Origin: a virus
Reading direction: 5' to 3' (one strand)
UHGV virus genome: UHGV-0202899
DNA: 39,170 nucleotides
Below are positions 1,981 through 30,800 of the stretch, one piece after another (the stretch's first letter is position 1; every line of letters starts with the position of its first letter). The translations under genes were made by a program, and so were the position numbers. A model generated the notes under the pieces. That model did no database searches. It had not been told where the DNA came from and saw only the letters and a list, made by a program, of their open reading frames with translations.

Positions 1981-4764
1981 TTATGTCGGTCTGTTAAATT
2001 TCCAAACCTGTTCCCAAGTGGCTCCATTGTAAAAGTCATACGCAAGGCCAGTATTGTTGAATGTTATTGATGCAATCTCACCGGAGTCATATTGTAACTG
2101 GATTGCCCTGTCTACGCGGTCTGGATATACAGATGTGAATCCATTTATATTCTTAACTCCGTTCAGGGTTACTTTTGCATTGGCAGTAGTTGCAGTATCG
2201 GAAACATTCGACAAATTGCTATTTTGCGTAACAATGGCACTGACAATATCCGCTGCTCCTCCAGGCAGATTCGCCGTGTTCCCAATCATCTCGAGCAGCG
2301 TCCTTCCATACGCCGCGTCCAATGGGTATTTTCCAGGCTCATTGCATAATCCATTATTGACAAGCTGTCCGGTGTGTAAGACAAATTTTAGGCCGGCTTT
2401 TAAATTCCTGAAAAAATCCCTTATTTTCATCCCGCTGACAAACTTATCATAAAAACTTTGGAAGCTTGTTATCTCCTCTACAACACCACTATCATCAAAT
2501 CCAGGAGCGGAAAATGAATCGCACATGTCCTGTACTGTCACCTTATCCCCTGGCTGTCCAAAATACTCCAGCCCCACATCCGGTTCCGGCCCTCCTGCGG
2601 TTACGGTTACATGCGTGGTGCCGGTGTAGGTGGTAAGGGCGTTCAGGGCGGACTGGGCTGCGGAGGGGAGGGGTTCCCAGGTGGGGGTGGCGCGCTCAAA
2701 CATTACATATACATCATGGTCTGCTACATATTGTTTGACTGCGGCATTGACCTCATCTATCCCCACATCTACGCCGATGCCTAATACACCTATTGGTACT
2801 GTGACAAAGATATTCCCATTGGAATTAATGGTGTATATATTCTCTTTTCCACCTGATGCTTTATTCCACTCGCCAACCTTTCCTGCACCAGCAATATTGC
2901 AATACCCTGCGGTCAATCTGCTATCTGCATATGCAGTCTTGCTGATTATCCCTTTGTAGTTATCAGTCCATATGGCTACGTACCGATTGTCGATTATGTT
3001 GTTAGGGGTAACCTGGCCTCCCTGGTTAGAGTATACGATACCTTCCGTAAGCTCTCTTAATGCCACATATCGCTCTATCCCCCACACGCCATCCCTGCAC
3101 ATTATCCTGTCCCGTACATCCCCCATACCGCGTAACGGCTCCGTCAGGGTGATGGATGCGGTCTTGGACTGATTATTAGCTCCCGTCACCGTCACCGCCG
3201 TGACATCCGTACTCACAATTTCCTGTGGATATTCCGGGCTGGGGGATGGCTTGCCTCCGGTGTAGGGTTCCCAGGTTCCATCACCGGACTGGTACAGCAT
3301 GGGATGATATGTTCCAGGCGTGATGGTGCTTCCAGCGTTTCCGTGAAAAAAGCATTCTACGTGCACATTTTCATTGTCAATCATGTCTTGGGTTATCTGT
3401 TTTGTGCTGTTTCCCTGCATCTCCGCAAATACTGTGTTTCCGTCCCATATACGTACATACATTTTGGGGATTGTCAGGTCGCTTCTTAATGTTAGATTCC
3501 CAGGCTTTAACTGACTTTTTAAATAATCCAATCTGTAACTTGCACTAAAGGCTCCAGTCAATGTTCCGGTGCCGGATATTGTATAAGCTCCACTATCTCC
3601 GCTAATGGCAGCTCCACCGGCACTTATATCTGTCATATCCACTAAGTCCAGCAGCTGCGCCCCGGTCGTAACCATCTGTTCGCTCTTCCCAGCTATATCC
3701 AGGTTTAGCAGGGGATGCTCCGCTGCGTCCGTCATGGTCACATGTCCCGTGCCGGATGCTTTCCTGACCGCGACCCCCTGGGTATCTATGGCTGATACAG
3801 TGGATGCCGTGCCATCAAATCCGGCTACCCCTGCGCACTGCTCCGCATATCTCTTTGCATCATCGGCACTGTTTTTTGCCTCTGCTGCTTTCTGGGTTGC
3901 TGTTGCTTCCTTCTCGCCTGCCACAACTGCACTCCCTGCCGCCGCTGTGGCACTGTCTGATGATTCCTTGGCCTTCTGGGTTGCCGTTGCCTCCTTCTCA
4001 CCTGCCACAGCTGCACTTCCTGCCGCCGCCGTGGCGCTGTCTGATGCTTCCTTGGCTTTCTGGGTTGCTACTGCTTCCTTCTCGCTTGCAGTGGCTGCAC
4101 TCCCTGCTGCCGCCGTGGCACTGTCTGATGATTCCTTGGCTTTCTGGGTTGATTCAGTTGCCTTCTGGGTTGCTATTCCTGCCTGTTCCTTCGCCTCCCG
4201 CAATGTCTCATTGGCTGTGTTGATTGCAGTTTCTGCCTGCCTCTGCCACTCAGCCTCGTTATTGACCCGCCTTTCCTCGTTGACCTTGCGCTGTTCTTCT
4301 GCTTCCTTCCTCTCGCTCTCATTGGCGTCCAGAATCTCCGTCTTCTGGGTAATGCGTTCCTCCAGCTGCTCCAGTTCACTCAGTTTCCCTGTATATGCCG
4401 GTCCATCAAAGATTGTATGGCCTACATATACCGCACCCCGGTTTGTGGCCCATTTGATGCTTCCATTCTCATCATATGCCCTTACCGCTATCCACACTGT
4501 GCCTTTCTGGGTGAGGCAGGTATCCGGTATGGTCCACGTAAGCAGTATGTACTCTTCCTGCACCTCAACATCAAGCAGGCAGGTATCCAACACGTTATTG
4601 GCATATTCCAGGTCCAGGCGGTAATTAAGGTTCGCAATATCAATACCACCCGATGTCACCCGGTCTATACGGATATGACGCACTTCCGCATTGTTATCAT
4701 ATGGTGTACCTATCTGCCGCTCAGAACGTGGTATGATGAGTTCCCTTCCCTTGACTGTAATCAT
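1981..4764 (-). CDS. tail fibre / receptor-binding protein (927 aa). It has an N-terminal baseplate/fibre attachment-type domain, a long Ala/Lys/Glu-rich coiled-coil repeat region and a beta-rich C-terminal part.
   Basis: An AAGGAG ribosome binding site is present. Its size and position after the capsid gene support the call. The coiled-coil part carries an 84-bp tandem repeat of 28 aa. The gene lies at the end of the structural block, before the lysis-type genes. Confidence 0.55.
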   Translation of the reverse strand: MITVKGRELIIPRSERQIGTPYDNNAEVRHIRIDRVTSGGIDIANLNYRLDLEYANNVLDTCLLDVEVQEEYILLTWTIPDTCLTQKGTVWIAVRAYDENGSIKWATNRGAVYVGHTIFDGPAYTGKLSELEQLEERITQKTEILDANESERKEAEEQRKVNEERRVNNEAEWQRQAETAINTANETLREAKEQAGIATQKATESTQKAKESSDSATAAAGSAATASEKEAVATQKAKEASDSATAAAGSAAVAGEKEATATQKAKESSDSATAAAGSAVVAGEKEATATQKAAEAKNSADDAKRYAEQCAGVAGFDGTASTVSAIDTQGVAVRKASGTGHVTMTDAAEHPLLNLDIAGKSEQMVTTGAQLLDLVDMTDISAGGAAISGDSGAYTISGTGTLTGAFSASYRLDYLKSQLKPGNLTLRSDLTIPKMYVRIWDGNTVFAEMQGNSTKQITQDMIDNENVHVECFFHGNAGSTITPGTYHPMLYQSGDGTWEPYTGGKPSPSPEYPQEIVSTDVTAVTVTGANNQSKTASITLTEPLRGMGDVRDRIMCRDGVWGIERYVALRELTEGIVYSNQGGQVTPNNIIDNRYVAIWTDNYKGIISKTAYADSRLTAGYCNIAGAGKVGEWNKASGGKENIYTINSNGNIFVTVPIGVLGIGVDVGIDEVNAAVKQYVADHDVYVMFERATPTWEPLPSAAQSALNALTTYTGTTHVTVTAGGPEPDVGLEYFGQPGDKVTVQDMCDSFSAPGFDDSGVVEEITSFQSFYDKFVSGMKIRDFFRNLKAGLKFVLHTGQLVNNGLCNEPGKYPLDAAYGRTLLEMIGNTANLPGGAADIVSAIVTQNSNLSNVSDTATTANAKVTLNGVKNINGFTSVYPDRVDRAIQLQYDSGEIASITFNNTGLAYDFYNGATWEQVWKFNRPT
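3889..4180. repeat. in-frame 84-bp tandem repeat of about 3.4 copies, encoding ATQKAKESSDSATAAAGSA(A/V)(V/T)AGEKEAT units of the fibre
   Basis: Copies begin at 3889, 3974 and 4058, with a partial fourth at 4142. They are nearly identical at the DNA level. Confidence 0.8.
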
Positions 4765-7376: not shown

Positions 7377-9271
7377 CTTTTTCCCACCTCCGTTGCTGTC
7401 GCGGCCCTCTGCCTTGCTTTCCCTGCCGCGCTGTTGTCCCTTCCGACAGGCTCACCTATGCTGTTTGTTTCCACCGTCTTCCCTCCCTGGGCATCCATCT
7501 GTGGGTTCATGTCGGCTATCCCTGTACCGTCAAGGACGGACAATATCTTCTGGTTCCCTGTCATCTCATATATCAGTCCGGCCATCTGCGCCATGGTCTC
7601 CTGCATCCTCTGGATTTGCTGGAACATGGTCCCGTTCTCCTGTACCTGCTTTATGACTTCATCCCGCTTATCAAAATCCATCATTTTTATGACCGCAAGC
7701 GCCTGATCCGCATTCTGTGGGGCGAATACCCCCATCCCATACAGTTCTTTCGCTAACTCATTGTTCGCTATCCGGCTATACATGCTCGCTTTCTGGGCTG
7801 ATACCTTGACATCAAATACCGGCTTCCTGACGGATAACCCGCCGTCCATCATGGGCATCTCAGCTGGCTGTAACCCCTCATTGGTCAGGGTGACATATTC
7901 CGGGTTACCGTTGGGCCTGGTTATCCGGTAGCACCGTGGGATGTCGTAGAACTGCCTTATCAGTTCAATGATTAGTGTCACTACCTCAGAATAGGCTATA
8001 TAGCTGTCCTTGAGCATGTCCCTGGACAGTTTCGAACCGGCTTCCTGTAATGCGGCAATCGCACTTGCCGCTGTCACGCCGGAGGTTGTTGAACCTTGGG
8101 AGAAATCACGGTTCCCGGATGTTTCCTTCAGTTCGTCAATCTTGGCCTGCCGGATGGCCATCACATTGCTGGACATCTCAGGAGGCTTGATCTGTTTCAC
8201 GGAATCCTCCCTTAAATCCCCACTGCAATGCACCAGGTCCTTTGACAGGTCGGTAAATTCGTCCTCTTCTACCTGCGCGCTCCCGCTGATAAAATATCTT
8301 GGCCGGTTAAGGTTGGCATGCTTAAGGATTACCTGGTCAAGCTTATCTATGTACTCCTGTGGGTTTATCATCACATCCAGGTATCCGAAACCGGCCGGTG
8401 AACCTTTATCGGGAAACATCCGATCAAAAACGAACGGGTATCTGCCATGTTCATATAGCCCCGCCTGATATTCCGGGCTATTTTCCGTGGCGAAAAGCAC
8501 ATGTCCTTCCACAAACTTGCAATAATGCAGGACCGTCCGGTTCGTCCTGATTCCGTTTACCTCCCCATATACCTTGCGTCTGTAGTACCAGTCAAATACA
8601 TTCACCTTCTTAGAGGTGTCCAATTTGGACACGTAAGCATATTCCGGCTTATAGATGACTTCCCCCTGGAGTTTCCCCTTTAGTTCAGGATACTCCTCCT
8701 CCAGTATTTCATGGTCCACCATGCCGATTACGAACACATTATCGGATTCCTGTATGTCGTTAATCCCCGGCTCCCAGAATATGTCCATCATGTCTATATG
8801 CCTGATTTCTATGTCACCCAGTCCGTTTTCTTTTTCCTGGTTCCAGAATATGCCGTATACTGCGGTCCCGGTCTTCGGCTTATCCCACGAACACTCCGAA
8901 TACGTCCTATCGAAGCCGTTCTGCTCCATGATGACCGGGACCACTTCCGAAAGCGTCTTTGCGGTCTGTTCATCACTTTCCTCCCTCGGAAGGATTACTG
9001 GGCTTGGGTAGTTGTCCTGGAAGTCCGCGTGCTTGTTGATTATGCTGTTGAACAGCCATGCACTGGTGGGCTGTGGGTCATTTGGGTTTCCTGACTTACT
9101 GGAAAATCTTTCCCAATGGTTATTCTTCCACCATTCCTCTGCATTTATGATCCGCTTTGTAAGGTCATCCTTGGCCTCCTTATACTTCTGGAAGGTCTGT
9201 AATGCATCATCAATTGTCTTTTCGTTGACTGGCATCTGCACGCCGCCCTGCGTGGTGTTATCGTTCTCCAT
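7373..9271 (-). CDS. portal protein (632 aa)
   Basis: The gene is immediately downstream of TerL and has a TAAGGAGG ribosome binding site. Its size is typical of a portal. The C-terminal region is acidic and glycine-rich, and the central part has long helices. Confidence 0.8.
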   Translation of the reverse strand: MENDNTTQGGVQMPVNEKTIDDALQTFQKYKEAKDDLTKRIINAEEWWKNNHWERFSSKSGNPNDPQPTSAWLFNSIINKHADFQDNYPSPVILPREESDEQTAKTLSEVVPVIMEQNGFDRTYSECSWDKPKTGTAVYGIFWNQEKENGLGDIEIRHIDMMDIFWEPGINDIQESDNVFVIGMVDHEILEEEYPELKGKLQGEVIYKPEYAYVSKLDTSKKVNVFDWYYRRKVYGEVNGIRTNRTVLHYCKFVEGHVLFATENSPEYQAGLYEHGRYPFVFDRMFPDKGSPAGFGYLDVMINPQEYIDKLDQVILKHANLNRPRYFISGSAQVEEDEFTDLSKDLVHCSGDLREDSVKQIKPPEMSSNVMAIRQAKIDELKETSGNRDFSQGSTTSGVTAASAIAALQEAGSKLSRDMLKDSYIAYSEVVTLIIELIRQFYDIPRCYRITRPNGNPEYVTLTNEGLQPAEMPMMDGGLSVRKPVFDVKVSAQKASMYSRIANNELAKELYGMGVFAPQNADQALAVIKMMDFDKRDEVIKQVQENGTMFQQIQRMQETMAQMAGLIYEMTGNQKILSVLDGTGIADMNPQMDAQGGKTVETNSIGEPVGRDNSAAGKARQRAATATEVGKR

Positions 9272-9280
9272 ATATCCTCC

Positions 9281-10777
9281 TTATATCCTGATTATCCGGT
9301 TCCTCCGTTCACGCTCCTCCTTGTATAGGTCAAGCGGGTCTTCAAGTGGCAGCGGCTTCTCCTTGTTCTTACGTACTGCAATGATCCTTGACATCAGCAC
9401 ATACCTACATTCGTCATATATGTGGTCTTCCTGTTTCGTATCGACATCCTCCACATTCTTGTCATCGTATACAAGATTCGGGATTGTACGGATGAACTCA
9501 GGGCAGCTCCTGAATACGTAGAACATGGATCGCCCATGTTCATCGAATGCCATCCGGTAATGATACTGCATCTTCCCGGCAATCCTATGGTTATCCCCAG
9601 GTGACCAGTACACCCCCACCTTTGCCATGATGTCTGCTATTGACTCACCCCTGTCCTTTGCGAAGATGGATGGGTCCGCAATCCCGGTAATCCTGCGGCC
9701 TTTCAGGTTCGGGTCTGTTTCCTCAATTGCGCGGATCTGCTTTGCCACCGCTTCAGGCTCTATCTTGATTCCGACATTGGGGCTGTCCTTCTTCATCCCG
9801 TATAACTCACGTATCCGGTATATGCATCCGACATAGTCCACGGCATACCATCCGATTGAGAACGGCTTGGCATACCCATGGTCATAACCGCGTATGATTT
9901 CCCACCCGTCCGGTACCCTGAATGGGTTTATCACATGGCTCCACTGCTGTGTGTCATATCCATCCGGGTCATTCTTCCACTCCTCAAACACCTGCCCGCT
10001 GAATGAATCCCAATCCCCATACAGCAGGGCATTACGCTGGGCTTCCGGCATCATGGCAAGGGAGGCTAGGTAGTGTGGGTTATTCCGCATCAGGTCCGGG
10101 TTGTCAAACAGGCTGCTTGGAATAAATATGCGGTCACTTTCTGTCTCGATTATATTTCCTGCCGGATCCCTTATTGGTGTTTTCTCCATTATTGGTGTCT
10201 CTGGTTTCATCGCTGTGATAAACCTGGCTTTCACCCATCCATGTCCCGGTCCCCCTGGGTTTGCTGTGGCGCGTATATATGCCCTTAACCCCGGTCCGCT
10301 TGACCTGGTCCGCGAGAAAAGATAATTGTATTCATCCCATGAAAAATGTGTCAGTTCATCAAATCCGACAAAATCAAAATGTCGGCCTTGGTATTTGATT
10401 TTGTCCTTCTCATGCTGCATATTCCTGAAATATATCTTAGCCCCACTGGGAAATGTCCACACATATTTACTTTCGTTGTATTTAGCGCGCGGAAATGCAC
10501 CCCCATACAACTCTTTGGACCGGCTTATCAAATCCTCTAATTCTGGAAATGTCTTACGGAGTATGACCGCTCTGTAATATTTTATATGGACCTGTCTCAG
10601 TGCCTCCACCAACAGGTAGTCCGACTTCCCCCCTCCGGCAGAACCTCCGAACAGGGCTTCAAATTCTGGCCTATGCATCATGGCCTGCTGTCTTGGTGAT
10701 GGCGCCCATATGACATTATGCGTTTTTAGGAACTCCTTTGCGTCAAATTTATCGCTGCCCTTACCTTTCTTCTTCAA
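9281..10777 (-). CDS. terminase large subunit (498 aa)
   Basis: It has a Walker A-like GGSAGGGKSDYL motif near the N-terminus and a C-terminal nuclease-type acidic motif region (DHIYDE). It overlaps the upstream TerS gene. Confidence 0.85.
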   Translation of the reverse strand: MKKKGKGSDKFDAKEFLKTHNVIWAPSPRQQAMMHRPEFEALFGGSAGGGKSDYLLVEALRQVHIKYYRAVILRKTFPELEDLISRSKELYGGAFPRAKYNESKYVWTFPSGAKIYFRNMQHEKDKIKYQGRHFDFVGFDELTHFSWDEYNYLFSRTRSSGPGLRAYIRATANPGGPGHGWVKARFITAMKPETPIMEKTPIRDPAGNIIETESDRIFIPSSLFDNPDLMRNNPHYLASLAMMPEAQRNALLYGDWDSFSGQVFEEWKNDPDGYDTQQWSHVINPFRVPDGWEIIRGYDHGYAKPFSIGWYAVDYVGCIYRIRELYGMKKDSPNVGIKIEPEAVAKQIRAIEETDPNLKGRRITGIADPSIFAKDRGESIADIMAKVGVYWSPGDNHRIAGKMQYHYRMAFDEHGRSMFYVFRSCPEFIRTIPNLVYDDKNVEDVDTKQEDHIYDECRYVLMSRIIAVRKNKEKPLPLEDPLDLYKEERERRNRIIRI

Positions 10778-12825: not shown

Positions 12826-13872
12826 TCATGCCGCCTTGTTACGGACTACCCTCAGGGTATCCGGGGTAGACTGTGCATAATATAAGGAAGTGACCTTGCT
12901 GTCTGCATGTCCCATGATCTCCTGTATGGTTCCTATATCCACGCCCTTATTCTTCAGTTCCATGCCCAGGGTCTTGCGCATCTTATGCGGGTAAGCGCGG
13001 CTGGTAATCCCGGCACGCTGCGCCACATCCTTTACAATCCCACGGATTGCACAGGTGGATAATGCCTGATACGGCTGTCTGGAACTGACAAAGATGGCTG
13101 GGTTATTGTCTGTCCTGCTGTTTAAGTACTTCCTAAAATGATGGATTGCATCCGGATCCAGGTACAAGGTGCGGTATCGGTTGCCCTTCTCCCCCAGTAT
13201 CATGACATCCCCGGTCTCCCAGTCAATCAGGTCGATTGTGATACCCACCACTTCCCCAACCCTGGCCCCGGTGCTCCTTAATACTTCTATGACAGCCCGC
13301 TCCCGTAGGCTCTCACATCCATCCTTAAGGCTTGCCATCTCCTCCGGCGTGAAATAATCAATCGGTTTCTTCGCCACCTTCAGCGGCTCGATTGCCTCCA
13401 CCGGATTGCTTCCAATCAGTTTTTCCTTTCGCATCCAGGTGAAAAAGGCTGACAGGAAACGGCGCTCGTTGTTGATGGTCCTGGCCTGGTTTTTCCTTCC
13501 GTTCAGGGGTACATTCCGGTTCTCGTACCAGTCCAGATAGTAATAGATATCCGATTCTTCCATGTCCGTCAGGGGTTTATACACCAGGGTCACCAGCCGT
13601 TTGATGGCGCTGACATAGCCGTATTTCGTCCCGTCCTGTAGTTTTTTCTTCTTATACAGGAATAACTGCAATATGTACCCGTTCTGGTTGTCTATGCTGT
13701 CCTTCATTTCCATTGGCAGCGTGTTAATCCGTTCTATCACTACGTCTACCAGGTTCCTTGTCAGGACGCGCTCTAACATTTCCAGTACATCCGGGTTAAG
13801 GTAGTAGGTCATCGATACAATCACATTATTGATAATCTGCGCTTTTACGCTCTGATTTTCTGCGTTACTCAT
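12826..13872 (-). CDS. int: tyrosine site-specific integrase (348 aa)
   Basis: The C-terminal catalytic region has the HKMRKT (H-x-x-R) box and LGHADSKVTSLYY with the catalytic Tyr. The N-terminal region is a SAM-like core-binding domain. The gene is adjacent to a tRNA 3'-end-like fragment. Confidence 0.85.
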   Translation of the reverse strand: MSNAENQSVKAQIINNVIVSMTYYLNPDVLEMLERVLTRNLVDVVIERINTLPMEMKDSIDNQNGYILQLFLYKKKKLQDGTKYGYVSAIKRLVTLVYKPLTDMEESDIYYYLDWYENRNVPLNGRKNQARTINNERRFLSAFFTWMRKEKLIGSNPVEAIEPLKVAKKPIDYFTPEEMASLKDGCESLRERAVIEVLRSTGARVGEVVGITIDLIDWETGDVMILGEKGNRYRTLYLDPDAIHHFRKYLNSRTDNNPAIFVSSRQPYQALSTCAIRGIVKDVAQRAGITSRAYPHKMRKTLGMELKNKGVDIGTIQEIMGHADSKVTSLYYAQSTPDTLRVVRNKAA

Positions 13873-14040: not shown

Positions 14041-14106
14041 TGGGCTACCGTGGATTCGAACCACGGTCCTGCGGAGGCAACAGTAACTCCCTGTGAGTTT
14101 CAGCCC
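14041..14106 (-). tRNA. tRNA 3'-portion-like sequence (T-arm GGTTCGAATCC plus acceptor 3' strand plus discriminator), not foldable as a complete tRNA. It is a probable integration core (att) remnant.
   Basis: The reverse complement reads ...GGACCGTGGTTCGAATCCACGGTAGCCCA. The upstream 40 nt cannot form canonical D and anticodon arms, and the total length is 66 nt. It lies immediately upstream of the tyrosine integrase. Confidence 0.45.
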
Positions 14107-14695: not shown

Positions 14696-14860
14696 TCACT
14701 TACTCAAAAAGTACGCTCCTGCTAAAAGTGCAGTTATAAACATTTCAAAATGCACCATCGCCCAAATCTTTTGTTTAAATGTAAAATCCATCCCGAATAG
14801 ACAAATGCATCCGAAGATGACTGCGGAAAACATAAGCCACATACCAATTAATCCATTCAT
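14696..14860 (-). CDS. hydrophobic mini-peptide (54 aa, two predicted TM helices)
   Basis: It is below the ORF-track threshold and has an AAGGA ribosome binding site. Its sequence is MNGLIGMWLMFSAVIFGCICLFGMDFTFKQKIWAMVHFEMFITALLAGAYFLSK. Confidence 0.4.
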   Translation of the reverse strand: MNGLIGMWLMFSAVIFGCICLFGMDFTFKQKIWAMVHFEMFITALLAGAYFLSK

Positions 14861-14896
14861 GATTATCCTTTCTGCACAATATCGCTAATTTTCTTA

Positions 14897-14924
14897 TTGA
14901 TTTTGTAAACAAATCTGTTATAAT
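14897..14924 (+). promoter_or_regulatory. sigma-A-type promoter: TTGATT, 16-nt spacer, TGtTATAAT (extended -10)
   Basis: Seen in the sequence. It is oriented rightward into an ORF-less segment that ends at a terminator. Confidence 0.5.
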
Positions 14925-14930
14925 GATATT

Positions 14931-15058
14931 AAATAACAGGGAACGCAAAGCCGTCAGTAGACCCTTGTGTGGTTGCAATTCCTCACCCTCGGATTAAGTT
15001 CCAGGCCGGTGCACAGGCCAGCGAAAACGTCGGGCAGAGCCGCAAGGCTCTTTTTTAT
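14931..15058 (+). ncRNA. candidate small RNA (about 125 nt) defined by its own promoter and intrinsic terminator, with no ORF
   Basis: A promoter lies at 14897..14924 and a terminator at 15036..15060. The only ORF here (14967..15155, GTG start) reads through the terminator and was rejected. The unit is flanked by two mini hydrophobic peptide genes on the opposite strand. Confidence 0.35.
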
Positions 15059-15060
15059 TT
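15036..15060 (+). terminator. rho-independent terminator (AGAGCC-GCAA-GGCTCT followed by TTTTTTATTT)
   Basis: The stem-loop plus U-run is seen in the sequence. Confidence 0.6.
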
Positions 15061-15068
15061 CTCAAATG

Positions 15069-15224
15069 TTAATCTACTGCTCCATAGATAAAGGGCAAAT
15101 ACAAAAGTCCCATAATGTCGTCAACTACCCTCGGCTGTATCTGGTGGTATATTAATAGCTCCAAGCCTTGCCATACTAAAGCAAGCACTATGTACCACCA
15201 GCATGTTTTTAATATCTTATCCAC
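15069..15224 (-). CDS. hydrophobic mini-protein (51 aa) with a GTG start
   Basis: A GGAGGAA ribosome binding site lies 7 nt upstream of the GTG. The sequence is MDKILKTCWWYIVLALVWQGLELLIYHQIQPRVVDDIMGLLYLPFIYGAVD. It converges on the candidate sRNA terminator. Confidence 0.35.
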   Translation of the reverse strand: MDKILKTCWWYIVLALVWQGLELLIYHQIQPRVVDDIMGLLYLPFIYGAVD

Positions 15225-20919: not shown

Positions 20920-21081
20920 TCATGCTGGCTTTTTCCCTTCCTTTTCTTCCCGATCCAGGCGGTCTCTGGCTTCCAGTGCATCTGTTGCAACCTTTAAGAT
21001 AATAAGCGTGCTCATGTCCATTTGCTTCATCTTTTTTACTATCCCTACTATCACGTTTTCTTTTTTTGATTCTGATGACAT
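20920..21081 (-). CDS. first gene of the leftward early operon (53 aa), in the Cro/early-regulator position
   Basis: It is below the track threshold. A perfect GGAGGTG ribosome binding site is present. It is divergent from the XRE repressor and driven by a consensus promoter. Confidence 0.45.
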   Translation of the reverse strand: MSSESKKENVIVGIVKKMKQMDMSTLIILKVATDALEARDRLDREEKEGKKPA

Positions 21082-21107
21082 ATTTTTCACCTCCTTTGTT
21101 CTTTTTC

Positions 21108-21175
21108 GTTATCTCTGATTACATTATAGTGTTCTTCGATTACTTTGTCAAGCTTTCATTGTAATCTCTGATAAC
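21108..21175. promoter_or_regulatory. two 15-bp quasi-palindromic operator-like sites, GTTATCtctGATTAC (21108..21122) and GTAATCtctGATAAC (21161..21175)
   Basis: The arms are mutually reverse-complementary. The sites overlap or flank the divergent promoters. Confidence 0.55.
21123..21151 (-). promoter_or_regulatory. leftward consensus promoter TTGACA-N17-TATAAT
   Basis: The -35 lies at 21146..21151 and the -10 at 21123..21128 on the minus strand. The gene start is at 21081. Confidence 0.6.
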
Positions 21176-21182
21176 TTTTTCG

Positions 21183-21211
21183 TTGACTCCATAGCGCATA
21201 CGTGTTATTAT
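21183..21211 (+). promoter_or_regulatory. rightward promoter TTGACT-N17-TATTAT driving the XRE repressor
   Basis: Seen in the sequence. The GGAGGTG ribosome binding site and the ATG at 21232 follow. Confidence 0.6.
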
Positions 21212-21231
21212 CATGTTAGGAGGTGAATTTA

Positions 21232-21723
21232 ATGATTGAAAATGAGCGTATAAAAGAAATTAGAAAATCGCTTAAAATGACTATGGAAAGATTTGGCGAA
21301 AGACTTGGTGTTACAAAAACCGCTATATCTAATATTGAAAAGTCGAATCGTAATGTAACAGAACAGATGCGCAAGGCAATTTGCCGAGAATTTAACGTAA
21401 GCGAGGAATGGCTACGGACCGGAAACGGGGAAATGTTCGTCCAGTTATCGCAAGAGGATGAAACCGCTCATATTGTCCAAGACATGCTGGGTAGCAATAC
21501 AGGCAGCTTTTATAACATCATCTTAGAAATTGCTAAGAGTTATAAAAAATTAAGTCCAACTTCTCAAAAGGCATTGGACGAATTAGCTGACAATCTATTG
21601 TCCAGTTTAGCTGACGAAGAGCGATTTATGACTATCGAAGATTATAAGAACGAGTGCCCAAAGACGTTGGAAGAATTGGAGAGGTTATATCCTCCAGTAG
21701 AAAAGAAACCAAAAGTGATTTGA
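21232..21723 (+). CDS. XRE-family HTH transcriptional repressor (164 aa)
   Basis: The N-terminal HTH_3 segment reads IKEIRKSLKMTMERFGERLGVTKTAISNIEKSNRNV. The ATG start follows a GGAGGTG ribosome binding site, because the track start is GTG 9 nt upstream. Confidence 0.85.
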   Translation: MIENERIKEIRKSLKMTMERFGERLGVTKTAISNIEKSNRNVTEQMRKAICREFNVSEEWLRTGNGEMFVQLSQEDETAHIVQDMLGSNTGSFYNIILEIAKSYKKLSPTSQKALDELADNLLSSLADEERFMTIEDYKNECPKTLEELERLYPPVEKKPKVI

Positions 21724-21989
21724 TTCAAGGCACCCAAAATTCCACTGTGGGATATTAGTTTCGGAATCTTAGAACATTAATATTACTTGTGTCGTTCCTG
21801 AGAAGTTTAAATTATAGCAAACAGTGTGTGCGCTTTGATAATATATGGCATATACGCCTTGTCTTTTATAATATATGTACTTCTTTTGCATCGACCTCAA
21901 CCTTTCTTTGTGGAAGATTGGGTGCAAATATGATTATATTACTATAATTAATTGGAAGAACTGGGAAAATATTCCAAAGGAGGATTATA

Positions 21990-22436
21990 ATGTTCGCATT
22001 TGCTGTATTAGACTTGGTGCTTTGCGTTGCTTTTATTTTAGTTATTGGTAACCTGTATAGTAAAGAATACGGAGAACCTTTAACTGGTCATTTGAATTTA
22101 AGTTTATTAGCTAACTATTCAATTTTTAATCCCATTTTTAAAGTTAATGATAAATTTTTAGATTTCAAAACAAATATTGTTATATTTGGAGTATTTTCCT
22201 TTCTTCTAAAAGGTATTTACTTACTAATTAAAATCAAAATTTTGTATTATGCTTTTTTATTTATTTTATTATTTATGATTTTCTCATACGGTAATTTATA
22301 TAAGCAAAGACAACTAACGATTAAAAGAGACAAATTGGACGGACATGAATGTAATTGTGCTTATCCTGTTTTGAAAGCCACAAAATATGTTCTTATATTT
22401 AAAGTTATCATTTATATACTTTTTGCGTTTTCATAA
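21990..22436 (+). CDS. polytopic membrane protein (148 aa) in an AT-rich cargo island
   Basis: A perfect AAAGGAGG ribosome binding site is present. The protein has 3-4 hydrophobic helices. Local GC is about 27-30 percent, against about 48 percent elsewhere. Confidence 0.6.
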   Translation: MFAFAVLDLVLCVAFILVIGNLYSKEYGEPLTGHLNLSLLANYSIFNPIFKVNDKFLDFKTNIVIFGVFSFLLKGIYLLIKIKILYYAFLFILLFMIFSYGNLYKQRQLTIKRDKLDGHECNCAYPVLKATKYVLIFKVIIYILFAFS

Positions 22437-23016
22437 AGAAGGTAATCATGAAAAAAAGAAAGCTGCTTATTATTATACTAATATTGATTGCCTTTCTAGG
22501 AATCATATTGGCGTTTTTATTTCAATAAAAAAACATTATCAAAATCAATTGGCCTATGAACTTTCAATTTGCGCTTCAATCGAATATTCGAGGGGATTTG
22601 AGCAAATAAGTAAGGATTTATATAACCAGTTATACGATTCTGCTTATGATTCCGGTCATGAAATGGGATATTATGAAGGACTTAAAGCAGGCAAAATGCA
22701 AGATACTAATTATAGCATTGGATATTTTGAGGGCTTCGATATCGGATATGATAGGGGAAACGAAAACGGCTACGAAAATGGCTACGAAGACTGGGATAAT
22801 GAAAATTTTAAAACTGCATACGAAAAAGGATATGCGCAAGGACGTATTTATGGAGAATCTTATTCAAGCATTAAAATATCTCAAATATTAGATTCGCTTG
22901 GTGATTTTTTTGAAAATGGATTCGCTTTCATTGCTATACTTCTAATATGTATTATTATGCTGTATCTTATTACTTCATGTTTGATTGATTACTTAAAAAA
23001 TAAATTCAAAAAATAA
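22387..23016 (+). CDS. repeat protein with GY(Y/F)EG / GYxxG repeats and a C-terminal TM anchor. Its start is uncertain.
   Basis: The track start at 22387 lacks a ribosome binding site and overlaps the previous gene. The protein shows YDSGHEMGYYEGLKAG..GYFEGFDIGYDRGNENGYENGYEDW..YEKGYAQGRIYG and then FAFIAILLICIIMLYLITSCLI. Confidence 0.4.
   Translation: MFLYLKLSFIYFLRFHKEGNHEKKKAAYYYTNIDCLSRNHIGVFISIKKHYQNQLAYELSICASIEYSRGFEQISKDLYNQLYDSAYDSGHEMGYYEGLKAGKMQDTNYSIGYFEGFDIGYDRGNENGYENGYEDWDNENFKTAYEKGYAQGRIYGESYSSIKISQILDSLGDFFENGFAFIAILLICIIMLYLITSCLIDYLKNKFKK
22447..22527 (+). CDS. possible 26-aa hydrophobic leader peptide (MKKRKLLIIILILIAFLGIILAFLFQ), or the N-terminus of the next gene if a 1-nt indel is present
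   Basis: An AAGAAGG ribosome binding site is present. It ends at a T/A homopolymer region. The -1 frame continues into the 22387..23016 ORF. Confidence 0.25.
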
Positions 23017-23175
23017 AAACCGTCCCTGCGCTAACAGAAACGGTCTATATAGATACTATTGCAGGATAGCGCCCTGAAATAATATCAGGTCTCCCAAACC
23101 TATGCATATTATATCATTCAACGCCCTATACTGCAATGGGCGTTATTTTATTGTAAATGAACGGAGGATTTTTAT

Positions 23176-24751
23176 GCCTTATTTAATATATTTACGCAAA
23201 AGCCGCGCCGATATGGATGCTGAAGCCCATGGTGAAGGTGAAACACTTGCCCGGCATGAAAAGGTGTTGCTTGCACTGGCTAAAAAAATGGAACTTAATG
23301 TGACTGCGATATACCGGGAGATTGTATCCGGTGAAACAATTGCATCTCGTCCCAAAATGCAGCAAGTAATCCAGGAGGTTGAGGAAGGGCTGTGGGAAGG
23401 GGTGCTGGTCATGGAAGTAGAACGATTGGCGCGCGGTGATACCAAGGACCAGGGGATTGTGGCCGAAGCCTTTAAATATGGGAATGCGAAGATTATCACA
23501 CCCATGAAGGTGTATGACCCGCAAAACGAATATGACGAAGAATATTTTGAGTTTGGGCTATTCATGAGCCGCCGCGAGTACAAGACCATACGCCGCCGTC
23601 TTGAGCGTGGTCGGTTGGCATCAATCAAGGAGGGGAAATACATTGCCGCTGCAGCACCTTATGGCTATGAACGCGTGAAGATTAAAGGTGATAAGGGATT
23701 CACTCTGAAAATAGTTCCCGAAGAGGCTGAGATTGTCCGTCTGATATTTTCTCTTTACACCAAAGGAGAAATCCAGGAAAATGGCAAATATAAACGTCTT
23801 GGTATGTATCTAATCAGCAAGCGTCTGGATAGCCTTGGCATTCCCCCGCGTGTAAGCCAATACTGGAGCCGCTCTACTATAAAAGATATCCTGATTAATC
23901 CTACCTACATAGGCAAGGTGCGTTGGCAATGGAGGAAGGTTGAAAAGAAAATTGTGGATGGATCCATTGTCAGAAATAGACCCAAGGACCAGAACTGCAT
24001 GAAAATTGATGGTTTGCACGAACCTATTATTGACGAGAATACGTTTAACTTGGCCCAGGATATAATCATGCATCAGAAAAATATTTCTGTAGTCCCCGAA
24101 AAAGTATTGATGAATCCTTTTTCCGGCTTAGTAATATGCGAAAAATGCGGTGCCGCTATGACAAGGGCCGCCAGCAATACAAAGATAAATTATCCTGTGC
24201 TCCGATGTCCCAATCGTTATTGTAACAACGTCTCTGCCCCCATTTATCTGATTGAAAGGCAACTTATATTATCTTTAAAACAATGGATTATGGATTACGA
24301 ATTACCATGGCAGGATAATGCGGAAGAAAATACGGTTCTGGAAGCCACATCAACTTCCATCAAAAAGATAGAGAGTAAGCTTTCCACATTGAATAAACAA
24401 TTATTGTCCACTTATGATTTATTGGAGCAAGGAATCTATACCACGGATGTATTTACCGAAAGGAACCGGCGCATTGCTGATCAGATAGCCGAAGCCAAGA
24501 AATATCTACAGGAATTGCAGATACAATATAACAATCATCTCCTTCAGGAAAAAGCAAGGAGAGATTTCCTTCCGTCTGTTCGTCATATCATCGATGTATA
24601 TGACACATTGGAAGATGCTGAGGCAAAGAATGCTCTACTGAATAATGTGATTGACCATATGACATATTTGAAAACTGAGCGTAATGGAAAGGGTGACCTG
24701 GAGAATATTAATTTTGAACTTACCATATATCCTAAAATTCCATTGACTTAA
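23176..24751 (+). CDS. large serine recombinase / integrase (about 525 aa)
   Basis: The start was reassigned to the ATG after a GGAGG ribosome binding site. The N-terminal resolvase-type catalytic domain reads YLRKSRAD...MEVERLAR. The zinc-ribbon region reads CEKCGAAM...LRCPNRYC and is followed by a coiled coil. Confidence 0.85.
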
Positions 24752-24752
24752 T

Positions 24753-24802
24753 TACCATAAGCCTATATGCGCTTACCTATAACACCATATAGGATAATGG
24801 TA
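24753..24802. other. 50-bp imperfect inverted repeat (17-bp arms TACCATAAGCCTATATG / CATATAGGATAATGGTA around a 16-bp core), 2 nt after the serine recombinase stop. It is a candidate att site.
   Basis: Seen in the sequence. The architecture is typical of serine-integrase att sites. Confidence 0.35.
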
Positions 24803-24822
24803 ATAAAATTACTATTTCAATT

Positions 24823-24852
24823 GATGATGGCAGCATTTCTGCTGCCATCATC
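24823..24852. terminator. perfect 13-bp stem / 4-nt loop hairpin between the convergent recombinase and giant-protein genes, likely a bidirectional terminator
   Basis: The sequence is GATGATGGCAGCA-TTTC-TGCTGCCATCATC. It ends 3 nt after the giant ORF stop. Confidence 0.5.
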
Positions 24853-24855
24853 ACA

Positions 24856-27800
24856 TTAAGCCTTTTTTGCATCCTTAAGCCAATTCCCCCAGTCTTCACT
24901 GTTATATAAGGCTTTTCCATTCACCTTCAAAAATTTCAGCTTGTTCTGTATGGCCTCATAAGCTTTTCTATCCCTTTTCTTATATGCTGCAATCCATTCT
25001 GCCTTATATCTACGGGTTATAGCACTTTTTATGGGGCTAATTGCTTCACTCTCCTTCTTTCCAGCCTGTATCTTATTGTCTACAATGACCTTTGCTATCC
25101 GGTTAAATGTCTCTAACGATTTTGGGGTGCTATCAAATAATTCAATTGCATTTATGACATCGCCATAGGAATACATATTCCACTCTTCCTCACCGTCTTC
25201 TGTCTCCCCGGTTAAAATCTCTCCATAAAGTTCGTCCGGTTCCAAAGCAGCCTCTGCCTCCCAGTCAATATCCTCACCAGTACTAAGCTGTGTCATCCTG
25301 GACTCTATGGCGGAGCCAATTAATTTTCCTGCGTATCCCTCTGCCATTAACTCATCAATCGCAGATTCATAGGTATCCAAATCCATTTCCATCTTAGCCT
25401 GGGCGGCTGCATCAATCCTTGGGTCTACATGGTCCTTCGATATAAGTTCTCCCTTTATGAGGGATTTAATCTTACTGCTGATTGTATCATTGTCAATCTC
25501 GGCTGCATTAAGGTCATCCTTGATTCTCTGCTGCAACTCCATATCGTTGTTCCTATGGGCTTCAATCATCATCCCCACATAAAGGTTCAGGTTCTCCTTG
25601 CTTCCTATGGCATATTTTCGTTTCAGCCAAGCATAATCCGCAGATTCGCTCCCAAGCTCATTGATGACCGTATCCACGATTGCTCTGAAATCTCTTGTTC
25701 CGCTTTTTACAGGGGATCCAATCAGTTTACTGGTGTTTTGTATCACATCTAATACCACTGCCTGCGGGGTCAGCTTGCTTTCTCCTTTAACAAGTTTCCT
25801 CACCCGGTTCAATGCATATCCCAATTCCTGATATGCCGCAATATCTGGCCGGTTTGGAGTATAACCACCAAAGAATACCGCATATGCGTCTTTTGCGTAT
25901 GGAATACTGTTGATTAGATTCATGTTGTCCATGAAGTTTCCCTTTACGGCGGACAGGTATTTTTCAATCCATTTCTTATCCCTGTCATCATCACGCATTG
26001 CATCCTGGATTGCTGCGGCTACTGCTGTTGCTAGGGCAGATGCTGTAAATACCGTTACCGCCTTTGCCATGCGTCCCTTTGCCCCCCGCTTTCCCATGGC
26101 TACATCAGAGGCTGCCCTGTAAAGCATGTTGTAGGTTTTGAGGGGTTCTGCCATGAATGCCGTTAACATCTTATCGGAATCCCGCTCACTCCGCATGATC
26201 TGCGTCCTGTGCAGCACGGAATCCACCACCTGGGTTTTATCAATGATTTCGCTGAACCGTCTTCCTACCTCAGTGTAAAACGCATCTGTCCCTACCTCCA
26301 AATCCGGGTGACTGTCCATGCACTCAAATTCACATGCGCGCCACAGCCGGTTCCATGCAAGTTTATCGCCCTTTTCAGCTAATATCATGGATACATTATT
26401 AATCCTCTGCATCGCGCTGTCTGTCTGGAACATTACATCCTTCATCTGGCGGCTGTTGTCCATCCGGTAGAATCCCCAGTCTTTCCACTGTGTGATTGGT
26501 GCATACCTGCACATGATGTCCCATTGGTCCTTTCTGGTCATTGTAAGTGCTCCCCTACCCAGATACTTCGGGTCCATCTCCATTGTTGCCCTTATATACG
26601 CTGTTGGCTGCTGGAGGGCTACCCTCAGATTCGCTCCGACCGATGCAACCTTCATGTTTTGGGAAATTTTATCCCAGATGTTCCGTTCCGTGTTTAGGCT
26701 GCCGTTGATATCCGCAATCAGCTTATCAATGTATCTATTCCCATCCTTTCCATGGGTGCGCTCAATCTCCTGCTTTATGCTCTTCCCTTCTGCCGCATCC
26801 CGCATATCCATATAGTTGAATACCTTATTAAGGTCTGATAGGGGAACCACATATGCATTGTAGGTGCTCATCTGGTCTACCTGTCTCGAATATACATCAA
26901 ATATATCCTCAATCACGATGGGCTTATTTGCTTTTTCCACGGTACTTTTCGTGAATCCAAGGTCCTTAATGGTCCTCTGCTGGTTCTTTAAGTCTCCCTG
27001 TTTCGTTCGGATATGGTTATCGTATACTGTAATCGGATAATAATTCCCCGCAGTATATTTCAGATACCCATACATCTGCATACTGACTTCATTCCCCCAG
27101 GCAGCGCATTCATCTCCCATGAACTTCTGCATACCGTCCGCCAGTGCTTTCTGTTCCGGTGTCAGGGTACTGGTGATTCTTTCGATATCCTCTGGTGTCA
27201 CTTTCGTTTCCCGATAAGCCTTTTCTGTCTTCGGCAGGATCATCTTTCCATCTTCAATCCGCAGCTTCCCTGTCCTCGGAGCCGGGATGACCCCTCCTGT
27301 ACGCTCATACATATGGTTCCTTGCCTGGTTCCGTTTATTCAGTTCGTACAGCGACATCACCTGGGATATGGTAAGCTCAATTGTCCCTCCTGATGTCTGA
27401 TACCTGGATGTCTTTGCATCCGGTCCGGTCCATTCCCGGATCTGCTTATATGATATGCTGTTTTCCTTCAGTATTCCTTCTATATGGTCCTGGGCTGTTT
27501 TAAGTTTGGTTGTTTTCTTATCCAGCCCCTCACGGAGTGCATCATAGAGGGACTTAAAATCATCCCCCAGCAGGCCGAACATGGTCTGTGGGTCCAGCAT
27601 GTTGTAATTCAGCAGTCTGTCCGCCGGTCCAATCAGGCCCTGGTATTCCGGTCTATTCCTACTGTCCTCCATACCCTTGAATATTCTATCAGCAAGTATG
27701 CTAAGCTGCCCGGAACGTTTGTTGCTCTTTAAGGTATTGGCCTCCGTGATTGCTTTCTTCATGGACAGTACGACTTTCTTCAATTCTTCCATGTGGTAGG

Positions 27801-30800
27801 CATCCAGGTTATCCAGCTTATCAATCCCTTCTGTTTTATTTACCAGCCCTTCTATCCGGACTGCTAAATCCGGGTCAATTTCTATGAAACTCCCATCTTC
27901 CATAATTCCACCGCTGTCTATGATTTTCTTGAACGCATCCTTGGCCTTCCCCCATTCAATCGTTCTTTGTGTTGGGATCCCATTATTGTTCAATTCATTG
28001 GAAGAGAAATCAATATTGGTCAGGAATTGTGCAACCGTGGTCCTCAGTATTTCCGGTACATGCTTGGAATCTGTTGGCTTTAAGAGCCAGTTCTGCATTG
28101 TCTTAGACTCTTTTATGATGACCTTTTTTGCCTCCCTGGTTATCTGGTTTTCACGTGCCTTCTGTATCTGTTCACGGTTTCTGCTTTGCATGGCTGCCAT
28201 CTTCTGGTTTTTTTCATTTCTGAGCGCATCCATTTTTGATTTATAGTAATCCTTCTGCTCCCTCTGCTGGGCCTCTGACAGATTCCTATATGATTTTGCC
28301 AATTCCTGGATCTTATCTATGTTTTCTTTCCGAATCGTTTTCAGCTGCCGTTCATATTTCTGCTTTATGCTGCTCTTATACTCCGACATTTTCTGCGTAT
28401 ACGTCCGCTTTACCCGTTGTACCTCTGCCGCCTTACGGTCCGCAAATGTCGGCTTCTCGCTCCGTACATCAAAATATGACTGTAGTATATCCTGGCCTAC
28501 AATGTAAGCCATCTCGTCCATGTTGGCGTGATACGGATTATTAACTTGTGCATCGGTCTGCTCAAGTGCGGATGCAATTGTCTGTAACTGGTCTGCCGGA
28601 TGGGTTATCGAATCAGGAAGCAGTTCCGGGTGCTGTCCGCTTAATTCCTGATATAGGCTGTCTATGGATATACCTTCACTTCCCAGCTTCATACGTCCAA
28701 AATTACGTTTCCGAAATTCATTGTAGCCGCCAACTGCTGCAAGGTCCGCTTTGTCCTGGTCCGAAATCTTAATCTTGGTATTCTTTATCTGATTCCTCAG
28801 GTCTTTATATTGTTGGGCCAGTTCCATATCGACCTGCTGTGATTTCTTCAGGACGCTTTTGGCAATGTTCGTTGCCGCTTCGGTCACTTCCATCCCGTCC
28901 ACCTGTTCTGCGCTTCTGATGTACTCATACAGTCTATCAAGGTTCTTGTGTAGGGTTTCCTGTTTATAGGTGCTGTTATAGTCCTTCAACAGCTTTCTTG
29001 CTACTCTTCCTACATCCTCTTGCCTTACTGCGCTCTTGGATGTGAGTTCAAACTGTTTTTCCAGCAACTTTTTAGCTTCTTTCAACATCTGGTTTTCATA
29101 TATCATGGCATCCAGACGTCTTTTTGTTACGGACTCATCCACATCTTCTAACTGATATTTTAGGTTATTACCGTCCTGTCCATCCTTGACATTTATCAGC
29201 CTGTCAAATATACTATAGATAGATGGATGATTAGCTTCGCCGGGCAAGCCCCCAGTTTTGGCGGCCCCGGTCTTGAACGAAGCTTCATCCATCTTTGTTG
29301 TGTGGACTTCATGAAGGTACATTCGATTGCTTTCATCTACTTTTACAACACATAATTCGTAATAATCCCCTTTGTAATCACCTGATTCTATGTTTATCTT
29401 TGCACCGATTACCGCCGAATCATAACCTCTTCCCTTCCAGTTTTTTGAATAATTCAATACCTTCCCACTTTTTAATACCTCTGGTACAGACTTGAATGTC
29501 ATGGATTTCAGGCGGCCCAACCCATGGGCTGAATCATCCTTGAATGATCGGTTGTTTATAATGATATCCCCGACTATATCGTTATGGACCAGGTTCCCGA
29601 AGGAATCGAAATATTCCCTTACCTGCTGTCCTAGATTCCTATCCCCTTTCATAAATTCATTCCCTTTAAGGATGATTACTGGTTCCATATCCGCTACTAT
29701 GCCATAATTTTCTTCAATCTTCTGATTGGTTACCTGGTCCGGCTTTTCGAGGACATACTTACTTTTTCCCTCACCTTCTAGTTCCATTCCTGATTTATAC
29801 CGTTCTCCAGCCTCATCAATACCTGCCAGCCATGTTTTTCGGCATTCTTCAAAGTACTCCAGCTTTTCTTCCAAACCCTTTGCCGCTTTCCTGGTGCTTC
29901 CGGTCTGTATGAGTTCCTTAATGGCCCCTATCACGTCTGTAAAGAAATCAATTACCTTCTGGGCCAGGTTCACGTTATCGTGTACCACACTATGTATGAA
30001 ATCCGGATCATTCAGGAACTTCTGTGTTGCATCTGCGGCAATTTCATCCATGGCCTCTGCGCGGCTCAGTTTCTGCCCTTCCTTCTCATACGCCGCTATG
30101 TAGCTGGATACCATATCTTCAATATCCACTCCCTCAGATTCTGTTATAGCCTTTATGCATTTGTCCTGATATATCTGATATGCATCTGATGCATATTCCT
30201 TAATAAAATGTGTCAGCTCATGGGACACTGATCCGTTGAAATCGTTTGAATTTACGGATATGGTGATACGTCCTGTTTCATAGGATGCTACAGCGCCGCC
30301 TGGCATTTCATCCACCAAATCAATCTGCAATCCCGTAAGCTTTCCTATGTGGCTTGCAACCTTCTTCTGCGCATCTGATGCGTTTTCAGAGACAGTTCCC
30401 AGCCCACCTTCCTTTGGCGCTCCCTGTACCATCCCACGCATCTTATATGTTTCCGGATCATATCCGATTTCCGAATTGCGGTCATGTGCACCGGCTTTAA
30501 ATGCTGCCTCGAATTGCTCCGGAGACAGGATGATTGCCGCCTCTGCCCGTCCTGGCCCTTTTGGCTCCATATTATACCGTCCTGCATTATATGCCTGGGC
30601 AAATGCCCGGTAATAGCTGGGCAGATCAGTTTCATTGTCATAAACTGTCTTAAATGCCTGCTGTCCTTCTTTTCCATACACCTCTGCCCAGGCATCCAGT
30701 TCCCCTTCCGTATGCTGCACCTGCGGTCCGGTGAGTTCGTCCACTTTATCGTGGATTTCTGTCTGCGGTTCCGGCCTCGTATAAGGCTCATATTCGGCTT

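Follow-up and report, generated by a model that had tools for sequence, protein, structure and literature searches.

Our analysis indicates that the virus genome UHGV-0202899, treated here as one stretch of 39,170 nucleotides (nt) that we call the window, very probably carries at 14897-15056 (+) a genuine stand-alone small RNA (sRNA) gene with its own promoter and intrinsic terminator. The RNA is a member of a previously uncharacterised family, which is found only in phages and prophages whose hosts are gut Lachnospiraceae (Enterocloster, Faecalicatena and uncultured relatives) and recurs as a compact module amid unrelated flanking sequences. We describe here the anatomy, conservation, covariation and modularity of this RNA, as well as its independence from the two small peptides encoded on either side of it, and discuss the notion that it may act in trans through a conserved host or phage factor.

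Anatomy of the predicted RNA gene

A consensus scan places the -35 hexamer TTGATT at 14897-14902 (+) and the extended -10 element TGtTATAAT at 14916-14924 (+), with a 16-nt spacer. The resulting promoter, TTGATT-N16-TGtTATAAT, scores 10/12 against the consensus and additionally has the TG of the extended -10 type; transcription by the host sigma-A-type RNA polymerase would be expected from such a sequence. The predicted transcript of about 125 nt occupies 14931-15056 (+), with the predicted start as its 5' end and the last U of the terminator run as its 3' end. The intrinsic terminator at 15036-15056 (+) is formed by the stem AGAGCC/GGCUCU with the GNRA-type loop GCAA (15036-15051) and by U6, the T-run ending at 15056. 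This T-run is present on the + strand only, and the hairpin read on the minus strand has no adjacent U-run. Thus the near-consensus extended -10 promoter and the intrinsic terminator proposed by the first-pass annotation of this locus are both present.

Both elements are preserved throughout the family. The promoter is found in all members as TTGNNN, about 17 nt and TGnTATAAT or TATACT, with spacer and discriminator sequences that diverge, and every variant retains the terminator stem, G-U wobbles occurring when the + strand is read. Consensus matches alone are not above chance, as the 3-kb stretch scanned holds 4 promoter-like and 2 terminator-like sites where 6.4 and 2.6, respectively, are expected. 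We count the unit as real because 77 contigs share it together with a conserved promoter geometry and covarying stems.

The claim that about 125 nt lack a credible open reading frame (ORF) holds as well. The + strand ORF 14923-14997 begins upstream of the predicted RNA start, and the + strand ORFs 14967-15155 and 14969-15091 extend through the terminator. A conserved ORF is ruled out because the lengths of the variants differ by 1, 3, 28 and 31 nt, which would break any frame, and a coding role for the unit was therefore rejected. In the Enterocloster phage PMBT24 the sRNA is spanned, from the promoter interior through the terminator, by an annotated 54-aa 'hypothetical protein' (WDQ45459.1; + strand, 85403-85567, equal to 4014-4178 of our contig L001; contigs are given by their L numbers where they have to be told apart). 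The same length differences make WDQ45459.1 probably an annotation artefact.

A family shared by unrelated gut phages

The 1.1 kb around the locus (blastn) and the whole 39-kb window (megablast) were compared with 50,697 GenBank phages. The sole nucleotide match of the window was 14911-15067, which aligns with phage PMBT24 at 96.8% and extends from the -10 box through the terminator; the flanks of this segment in the window and in PMBT24 are unrelated. Since this is a single match, the RNA unit represents essentially all nucleotide-level sharing between the two genomes. The genome of the virulent PMBT24 measures 100 kb and includes genes for a DNA polymerase, a ribonucleotide reductase and a sigma factor; among the gene products of the window are a capsid protein, a P22-type portal, a terminase, ParA, a ParB-like protein, a tyrosine integrase and a serine recombinase.

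Further copies were sought with pattern searches of IMG/VR, metagenomes and GTDB (one genome per species), and subsequently by a covariance model (R1). The model confirmed the RNA on 77 contigs of phage, prophage and gut metagenome origin, which fall into 17 variants. Every copy belongs either to a viral contig from the human gut or to a Lachnospiraceae genome, the genomic ones being located in Enterocloster aldenensis, Faecalicatena contorta and an uncultured Lachnospiraceae metagenome-assembled genome. The model matches the window once, at 14931-15055 with 106 bits (E 1e-25), although this match arises by construction, as the window is one of the 17 training rows. A pattern search of plasmids returned chance matches only and no copies of the RNA, and a pattern scan with CCAGGCCGGTGCACAGGCC gained just two chance coding matches, L028 and L029.

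The borders of the module are sharp. Mean pairwise identity equals the background value of 0.27 outside the module, where 30 distinct upstream and 35 distinct downstream contexts were found, and rises to 0.6-0.8 inside it, from about 55 nt before the ACAGGG motif (the -35 region) to about 20 nt past the T-run.

Some contigs carry the gene in unusual states. L020 (IMGVR_UViG_3300045988_096714) has two different full-length copies at 7875-7971 and 10619-10712, 2.7 kb apart and in the same orientation, one a medium and the other a short form, which differ in the stem and loop of P2 (described below). Internally deleted remnants of the RNA gene were found in L012 (6092-6144), L020 (4278-4330) and L062 (2173-2225). 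In these remnants an intact promoter and the first 17 nt (AAAUAACAGGGAACGCA) are joined directly to the terminator GGGCCGCAAGGCUCU6, and the deletion is bounded by two short GCA repeats.

Conserved domains and covarying stems

The 17 distinct variants, 93-125 nt in length, were combined into one alignment (A3), which divides the RNA into domains of very different conservation. The 5' domain AAAUAACAGGGAACGCAAAGCCGYCAGYAGACCCUUG (14931-14967, +) is invariant or nearly so at 35 of its 37 positions. Within it we propose the helix P1, in which AGGG at 14938-14941 pairs with CCCU at 14962-14965 (+) and encloses a conserved 20-nt loop; P1 never varies across 17/17 variants, and covariation thus neither supports nor refutes it. 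The second domain is the P2 hairpin (14967-14986, +), whose 6-bp stem joins 14967-14972 with 14981-14986 around the loop UUGCAAUU, written UUGNAAUU across the family. P2 is indicated by covariation: three of its six pairs show compensatory changes (GUGUGG/CCACAC, GUGAGG/CCUCAC, GAAAGG/CCUUUC, GCGAGG/CCUUGC). The window copy has a U-U mismatch in this stem (14970/14983) that is missing from the sister variants.

Next follows an optional 37-nt insert (14987-15023, +) with two hairpins, one pairing 14991-14993 with 15000-15002 and the other 15004-15009 with 15014-15019 around the loop UGCA. Short and medium variants have this slot empty or filled with 5-9 nt instead of 37 nt. The second insert hairpin shows three compensatory pairs (GGCUCG/CGAGCC, GACCUG/CAGGUC), and here too the window copy has a mismatch, G-A, that its sister variants lack. 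The single-stranded 3' motif AAAACGUCGGGCA (15024-15036, +; family form AAAACGUCRGGCA) is invariant but for a C->U change in PMBT24 and a G->A change in L040 and L086. Its CGUC could form a pseudoknot with AACG at 14942-14945, for which the evidence is suggestive but thin: the terminal A.C mismatch of this pairing is G-C in L059 and A-U in PMBT24.

Over the whole alignment the structure model leaves 94.6% of the cells paired and has 7 pairs with double changes. Its covariation score of 0.113 lies well above all slid controls and above the shuffled alignments (0.058 +/- 0.007), none of which reaches it (0/500). In P2 and the terminator, 7 G-U cells stand against 2 A.C cells when the + strand is read. 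Therefore the + strand is indicated as the functional one, because G-U exceed A.C cells and because the U-run and the promoter are on this strand only. The extra helices P3 (CCY/RGG), GCC/GGC, GCAAAG/CUUUGY and position 24/102 were inspected by eye, are not consistently supported across the variants and were rejected.

The RNA as one cassette in an opposing operon

The position of the RNA relative to its surroundings follows a strict rule. Homologues of the genes that flank it in the window (tyrosine recombinase, phrog_874 protein, ParA, ParB-like protein, large terminase, zinc-ribbon proteins) were located in other loci in about 60 cases, without exception on the strand opposite the RNA. Gene order is broadly kept too and runs ParA/ParB, phrog_874, small genes, RNA, small genes, tyrosine recombinase and terminase, the small genes being shuffled; the tyrosine recombinase, phrog_874 and zinc-ribbon families are syntenic with the RNA only at variable distance. 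Other flanking families comprise Lar restriction-alleviation proteins, Dam and N4/N6 DNA methylases, PAPS-reductase-like proteins, RusA, helix-turn-helix repressors and AbrB/MazE-like proteins. Such an early anti-restriction neighbourhood hints at host takeover or counter-defence.

The junctions of the module bear a short recurrent sequence. The right junction motif AAATGTTAAT (15064-15073, +) includes the stop codon of the convergent gene, and a related motif lies to the left of the promoter near 14885. In the form AAATRYTAAT it occurs six times in 1.4 kb (14461, 14672, 15064, 15245, 15713 and 15783, +), at junctions of minus-strand small genes, and in many phages a copy stands at each edge of the RNA module. 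Read on the mRNA strand, it consists of a stop codon and then CAUUU, after which an AGGAGG ribosome-binding site comes at some junctions. As the motif is found at gene junctions and at the edges of the module alike, the RNA is one cassette in a recombining cassette array, and AAATRYTAAT looks like a linker that allows small-gene cassettes to shuffle by recombination.

Between 14861 and 15068 no minus-strand terminator or promoter was called, so the operon mRNA must cross the cassette, and with such read-through a cis-antisense duplex and a head-on collision of polymerases are unavoidable.

Possible function of the RNA

The reading that we favour, with belief and doubt in even balance, is that of a trans-acting structured RNA which binds a conserved host or phage factor. 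The host-type extended -10 promoter would drive the RNA immediately on infection and also from prophages, because it needs no phage factor, and the strong intrinsic terminator would yield a discrete product; an antiterminator alternative is not conserved. P1, P2 and the terminator hairpin would form a scaffold that displays the 37-nt 5' domain and the AAAACGUCRGGCA motif, and these two displayed parts would act in trans by binding a factor conserved across host genera. Such a factor would be a protein or a small ligand more probably than a long antisense target, and in host takeover or counter-defence the RNA would then serve as decoy, sponge or cofactor. A search for the 20-specified-base core in 185,579 species genomes, covering either strand, gave three Lachnospiraceae prophage copies of the RNA as well as chance matches in unrelated phyla; a long antisense target is unlikely because the search recovered only these three prophage copies of the RNA itself. 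Within the window the complementarity of the RNA is at chance level, with 29 runs of at least 9 nt and a maximum of 11, compared to 11-47 runs and maxima of 10-13 for shuffled RNAs.

Several points weigh against a trans-acting RNA of this kind. No partner protein, ligand or target has been identified, and no phage protein consistently co-occurs with the RNA. A target recognised by a short seed of 7-12 nt may exist. The transcription of the unit is itself deduced from its sequence. Thermodynamic folding of single sequences is unremarkable (z-scores -0.1 to -2.1), and P1, the proposed pseudoknot and P3 are based on invariant positions or single-sided changes. Finally, the family is narrow, and its invariance could partly reflect recent horizontal spread and not constraint.

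An alternative is that the unit serves only to direct a strong promoter against the oncoming early operon, as lambda OOP and P22 sar do. The antisense RNA would be perfectly complementary to the intercistronic read-through mRNA, and RNase III cleavage together with RNA polymerase collision would lower the expression of the operon-distal genes (small genes, recombinase, packaging). The reverse orientation is indeed kept in every context, the unit keeps its approximate place between the phrog_874/ParAB and the recombinase/terminase genes, and operon transcripts should cross the unit for the reason given above. However, an antisense pair co-varies automatically, and about 50 nearly invariant unpaired nt are left unexplained. 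Antisense action alone is insufficient because these unpaired nt were constrained while the P2 stem and the promoter spacer drifted. Additionally, the RNA overlaps no ORF or ribosome-binding site, the gene immediately downstream differs in nearly every context, and some phages, such as the one represented by L020, have two different full copies. We consider an exclusive insulator function possible and rather unlikely; as a secondary effect of the trans-acting RNA, cis-antisense pairing and transcription collision would still be expected.

A somewhat less likely proposal overlaps with the favoured trans-acting class and specifies it further, namely that the RNA is a counter-defence decoy: either a mimic of a CRISPR repeat, formed by P2 and its flanks in the manner of the Racrs (RNA anti-CRISPRs, solitary repeat units), that sequesters Cas proteins, or an aptamer or sponge whose ligand would be an immune signalling nucleotide or a defence protein that binds RNA. 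The arrangement of a promoter, a short structured RNA and a terminator in an early anti-restriction neighbourhood matches the Racrs (PMC10651486), and ACCCUUGUGRGGUUG gives a sub-threshold match to CRISPR-DR24 (11.4 bits in L010; 17.7 bits, E 0.25, in L086). This match covers 16/30 positions, however, falls far short of the gathering score (35) and does not appear in the window variant. The matching bases are located in the freely covarying P2, and the repeat-like part is split by an insert of 0-37 nt. The sponge version would be favoured by a likeness of ACAGGG..ACGCAAAGCC to the pocket strands of a cyclic-nucleotide riboswitch (see below), but searches of 111-120 nt gave no c-di-GMP-I match at E <= 10.

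In its boldest form this proposal amounts to a new class of counter-defence RNA, which we regard as similarly doubtful. The RNA would be a compact aptamer or decoy that appears as soon as infection begins, its invariant core (ACAGGGAACGCAAAGCC... and AAAACGUCRGGCA) would bind and neutralise a conserved immune component of Lachnospiraceae, and it would spread as a mobile cassette between unrelated virulent and temperate phages. The component could be a cyclic-nucleotide second messenger, with the RNA as a GEMM-I-like sponge. It could also be a defence protein that binds RNA, Cas proteins included, or an anticodon nuclease engaged through the P2 loop UUGNAAUU.

It is very improbable that the conserved entity is a DNA-level or minus-strand element, i.e. 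a recombination or attachment site or a structured intercistronic mRNA element, whose likeness to a promoter and a terminator would be incidental. The AAATRYTAAT linker flanks and the movement of the element as a cassette would fit this notion, as would two A.C cells (L007 in P2, L056 in the terminator) that become G-U on the minus strand. Nevertheless, the promoter geometry is kept despite sequence drift, only the + strand has the U-run, its G-U cells exceed the A.C cells by 7 to 2, and a separate attP candidate, a tRNA fragment at 14041-14075, adjoins the integrase.

The flanking peptides

The two neighbouring cassettes contain small ORFs on the opposite strand, both of them outside the RNA unit: a 54-aa ORF at 14696-14860 (-) and a 51-aa ORF with a GTG start at 15069-15224 (-), which matches phrog_20526. 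The first-pass annotation had described both as tiny membrane-peptide genes. Both ORFs exist, and the 54-aa product is strongly hydrophobic (Kyte-Doolittle 19-residue window up to 2.4) and without a match in Pfam and PHROG searches; the 51-aa product is less hydrophobic, with no 19-residue window above 1.6. Neither ORF reaches into the RNA: 70 nt separate its predicted start from the start codon of the 54-aa ORF and 12 nt separate its 3' end from the stop of the 51-aa ORF, and overlap with the peptide mRNAs arises only if the operon mRNA reads through. The terminator region had been described as shared with the convergent 51-aa gene, which does not hold in a functional sense: the stop codon of this gene lies 12 nt past the T-run, and the minus-strand hairpin is not followed by a U-run.

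The same geometry had led to the proposal of either an sRNA locus or a type I toxin-antitoxin module. The former stands, the sequence pointing to a promoter-driven, terminated, non-coding structured RNA that is conserved in many phages. In the latter the RNA would be the antitoxin of the 54-aa peptide, the 51-aa peptide or both, acting via a 3'-overlap or a leader overlap. The hydrophobicity of the 54-aa ORF speaks for this, the convergence with the 51-aa ORF recalls 3'-overlapping type I pairs, and in PMBT24 the convergent neighbour is also a small peptide, of 47 aa and with a hydrophobic tail. Against it, the RNA has at least 30 different neighbours, most of them soluble. The convergent ones are mostly soluble proteins of 45-330 aa (zinc ribbons, Lar-like), and only 2 of about 35 are small hydrophobic peptides, those of PMBT24 and L088 (56 aa). 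Homologues of the 54-aa peptide adjoin the RNA only in copies with an identical context, and in L017 the distance is 2.2 kb. In L004, L060, L069 and L084, homologues of the 51-aa peptide are separated from the RNA by about 1 kb and stand on its opposite flank. Moreover, phrog_20526 was built from cultured phages, yet the RNA occurs among GenBank phages in PMBT24 alone. The base pairing suggested between the RNA and the two peptide mRNAs proved unconvincing: compared with shuffled RNAs, the duplex with the 54-aa mRNA is no better (fraction 0.6) and that with the 51-aa mRNA marginally better (fraction 0.04). As the peptides are not linked to the RNA in other phages and the convergent neighbours are mostly soluble, the toxin-antitoxin reading is unsupported and scarcely credible.

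Other features of the window and of PMBT24

A segment at 14041-14075 (-), GGACCGTGGTTCGAATCCACGGTAGCCCA, resembles the 3' part of a tRNA gene (T-arm and acceptor 3' strand). It is located in a 255-nt gap adjoining the tyrosine integrase (12826-13872), neither ARAGORN nor Rfam called a full tRNA there, and it is probably the attP core of a tRNA-integrating element. Further along the window, 21000-25000 is a low-GC island (0.28-0.36 compared to about 0.47 elsewhere) where the GC skew is reversed and genes lie on the + strand; it carries a large serine recombinase (23102-24751) and has the appearance of a module that was acquired separately or of a second system for integration. A single ORF of 2666 aa occupies 24856-32856 (-).

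PMBT24 (L103) has at about 37761-38043 (-) a perfect-consensus promoter, TTGACA-17-TATAAT with TG, and about 210 nt downstream of it an 18-bp terminator, with only tiny opposite-strand coding sequences annotated. This may be another unannotated non-coding RNA unit.

Significance

Phage-encoded small RNAs have barely been explored outside enterobacteria. The RNA described here is widespread in human-gut Lachnospiraceae phages, where it is found amid anti-restriction genes, and it is the only sequence common to a temperate element that carries ParA/ParB and a 100-kb virulent phage. If it does bind a protein or ligand for host takeover or counter-defence, it would represent an RNA-only class of effectors for phages of Gram-positive gut bacteria. 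If it is an antisense insulator only, it would still explain a mis-annotated 'hypothetical protein' (WDQ45459.1) in many genomes. A direct functional test is possible because the RNA occurs in a culturable pair, PMBT24 and Enterocloster bolteae.

Comparison with known RNA families and systems

No Rfam 15 family reaches its gathering threshold in the whole window or matches the RNA body at E <= 10. Searches with the locus and two short variants at E <= 10 gave chance-level matches only (rseX, rteR, IsrR, DapZ, STnc400, CRISPR-DR24), and for the window RNA no CRISPR-repeat (CRISPR-DR) similarity appeared even at E <= 10. A tRNA or tmRNA was rejected, since ARAGORN found none in the window and Rfam gave no match. 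The core ACAGGG..ACGCAAAGCC presumably resembles the ligand-pocket strands of the c-di-GMP-I/cGAMP riboswitches, a likeness to which the covariance model gives no support: the c-di-GMP-I/GEMM-I riboswitch (RF01051) did not match at E <= 10 in searches of 801, 111 and 120 nt. The position of the RNA is not that of a riboswitch either, as all genes downstream of it are convergent and none is on the same strand.

Full-text string searches of the literature with the RNA core and with the DR24-like hairpin found no papers, the PMBT24 genome paper does not mention a non-coding RNA, and the core string is absent from the first 200 of 408 supplementary files of a human-microbiome catalogue. A survey of IMG/VR has listed more than 8,000 unnamed candidate structured RNAs with no function assigned (Fremin et al. 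2023, PMC10690425), and it drew on the same IMG/VR contigs as the family described here. One of its candidates, DNAVirus_6258, is 86 nt long, belongs to Caudovirales infecting Lachnospiraceae, occurs in the human gut only and is highly expressed in small-RNA-seq. By this description, DNAVirus_6258 may be the same family as the window RNA.

Among characterised systems, the antitoxin RNAs of Firmicutes prophages (SR4/BsrG, RatA/TxpA and the RCd RNAs of C. difficile) likewise stand near short hydrophobic ORFs. However, their toxin and RNA genes overlap and are inherited together, and the window RNA has neither an overlap nor a conserved partner. Lambda OOP and P22 sar are similar to the window RNA as short ORF-less units (about 70-125 nt) with a constitutive promoter and an intrinsic terminator, which are set against an early operon and complementary to its mRNA. 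The window unit is thus a reverse promoter-terminator unit inside an operon, as expected of a cis-antisense RNA, without the overlap with a specific target gene: OOP and sar each reach into the coding end or ribosome-binding site of one particular target (cII, ant), in contrast to the window RNA, which overlaps no ORF. It also differs from them by its changing neighbours and by about 50 invariant unpaired nt that are needless for an antisense function.

The Racrs (Camara-Wilpert et al. 2023, PMC10651486) are like the window RNA promoter-driven small structured phage RNAs that are found with early counter-defence genes and are mobile between unrelated phages. They are defined by CRISPR-repeat similarity, compared with a 16-nt sub-threshold local match in some variants of our family, and the 5' domain of the window RNA has no CRISPR-repeat counterpart. 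Trans-acting sRNAs of prophages such as DicF, IpeX and AgvB/AsxR resemble it as moron-like stand-alone sRNA genes which have their own promoter and terminator, reside in diverse phages and act on host factors. Contrastingly, these RNAs are enterobacterial, Hfq-dependent and active through short seeds, whereas the conservation of the window RNA reaches far beyond a seed. The RNA therefore belongs to a known kind, the phage-encoded stand-alone small RNA, and it is its conservation across unrelated phages that is unusual. By analogy, its nearest counterparts would be lambda OOP and P22 sar in geometry, and the prophage moron sRNAs together with the Racrs in lifestyle.

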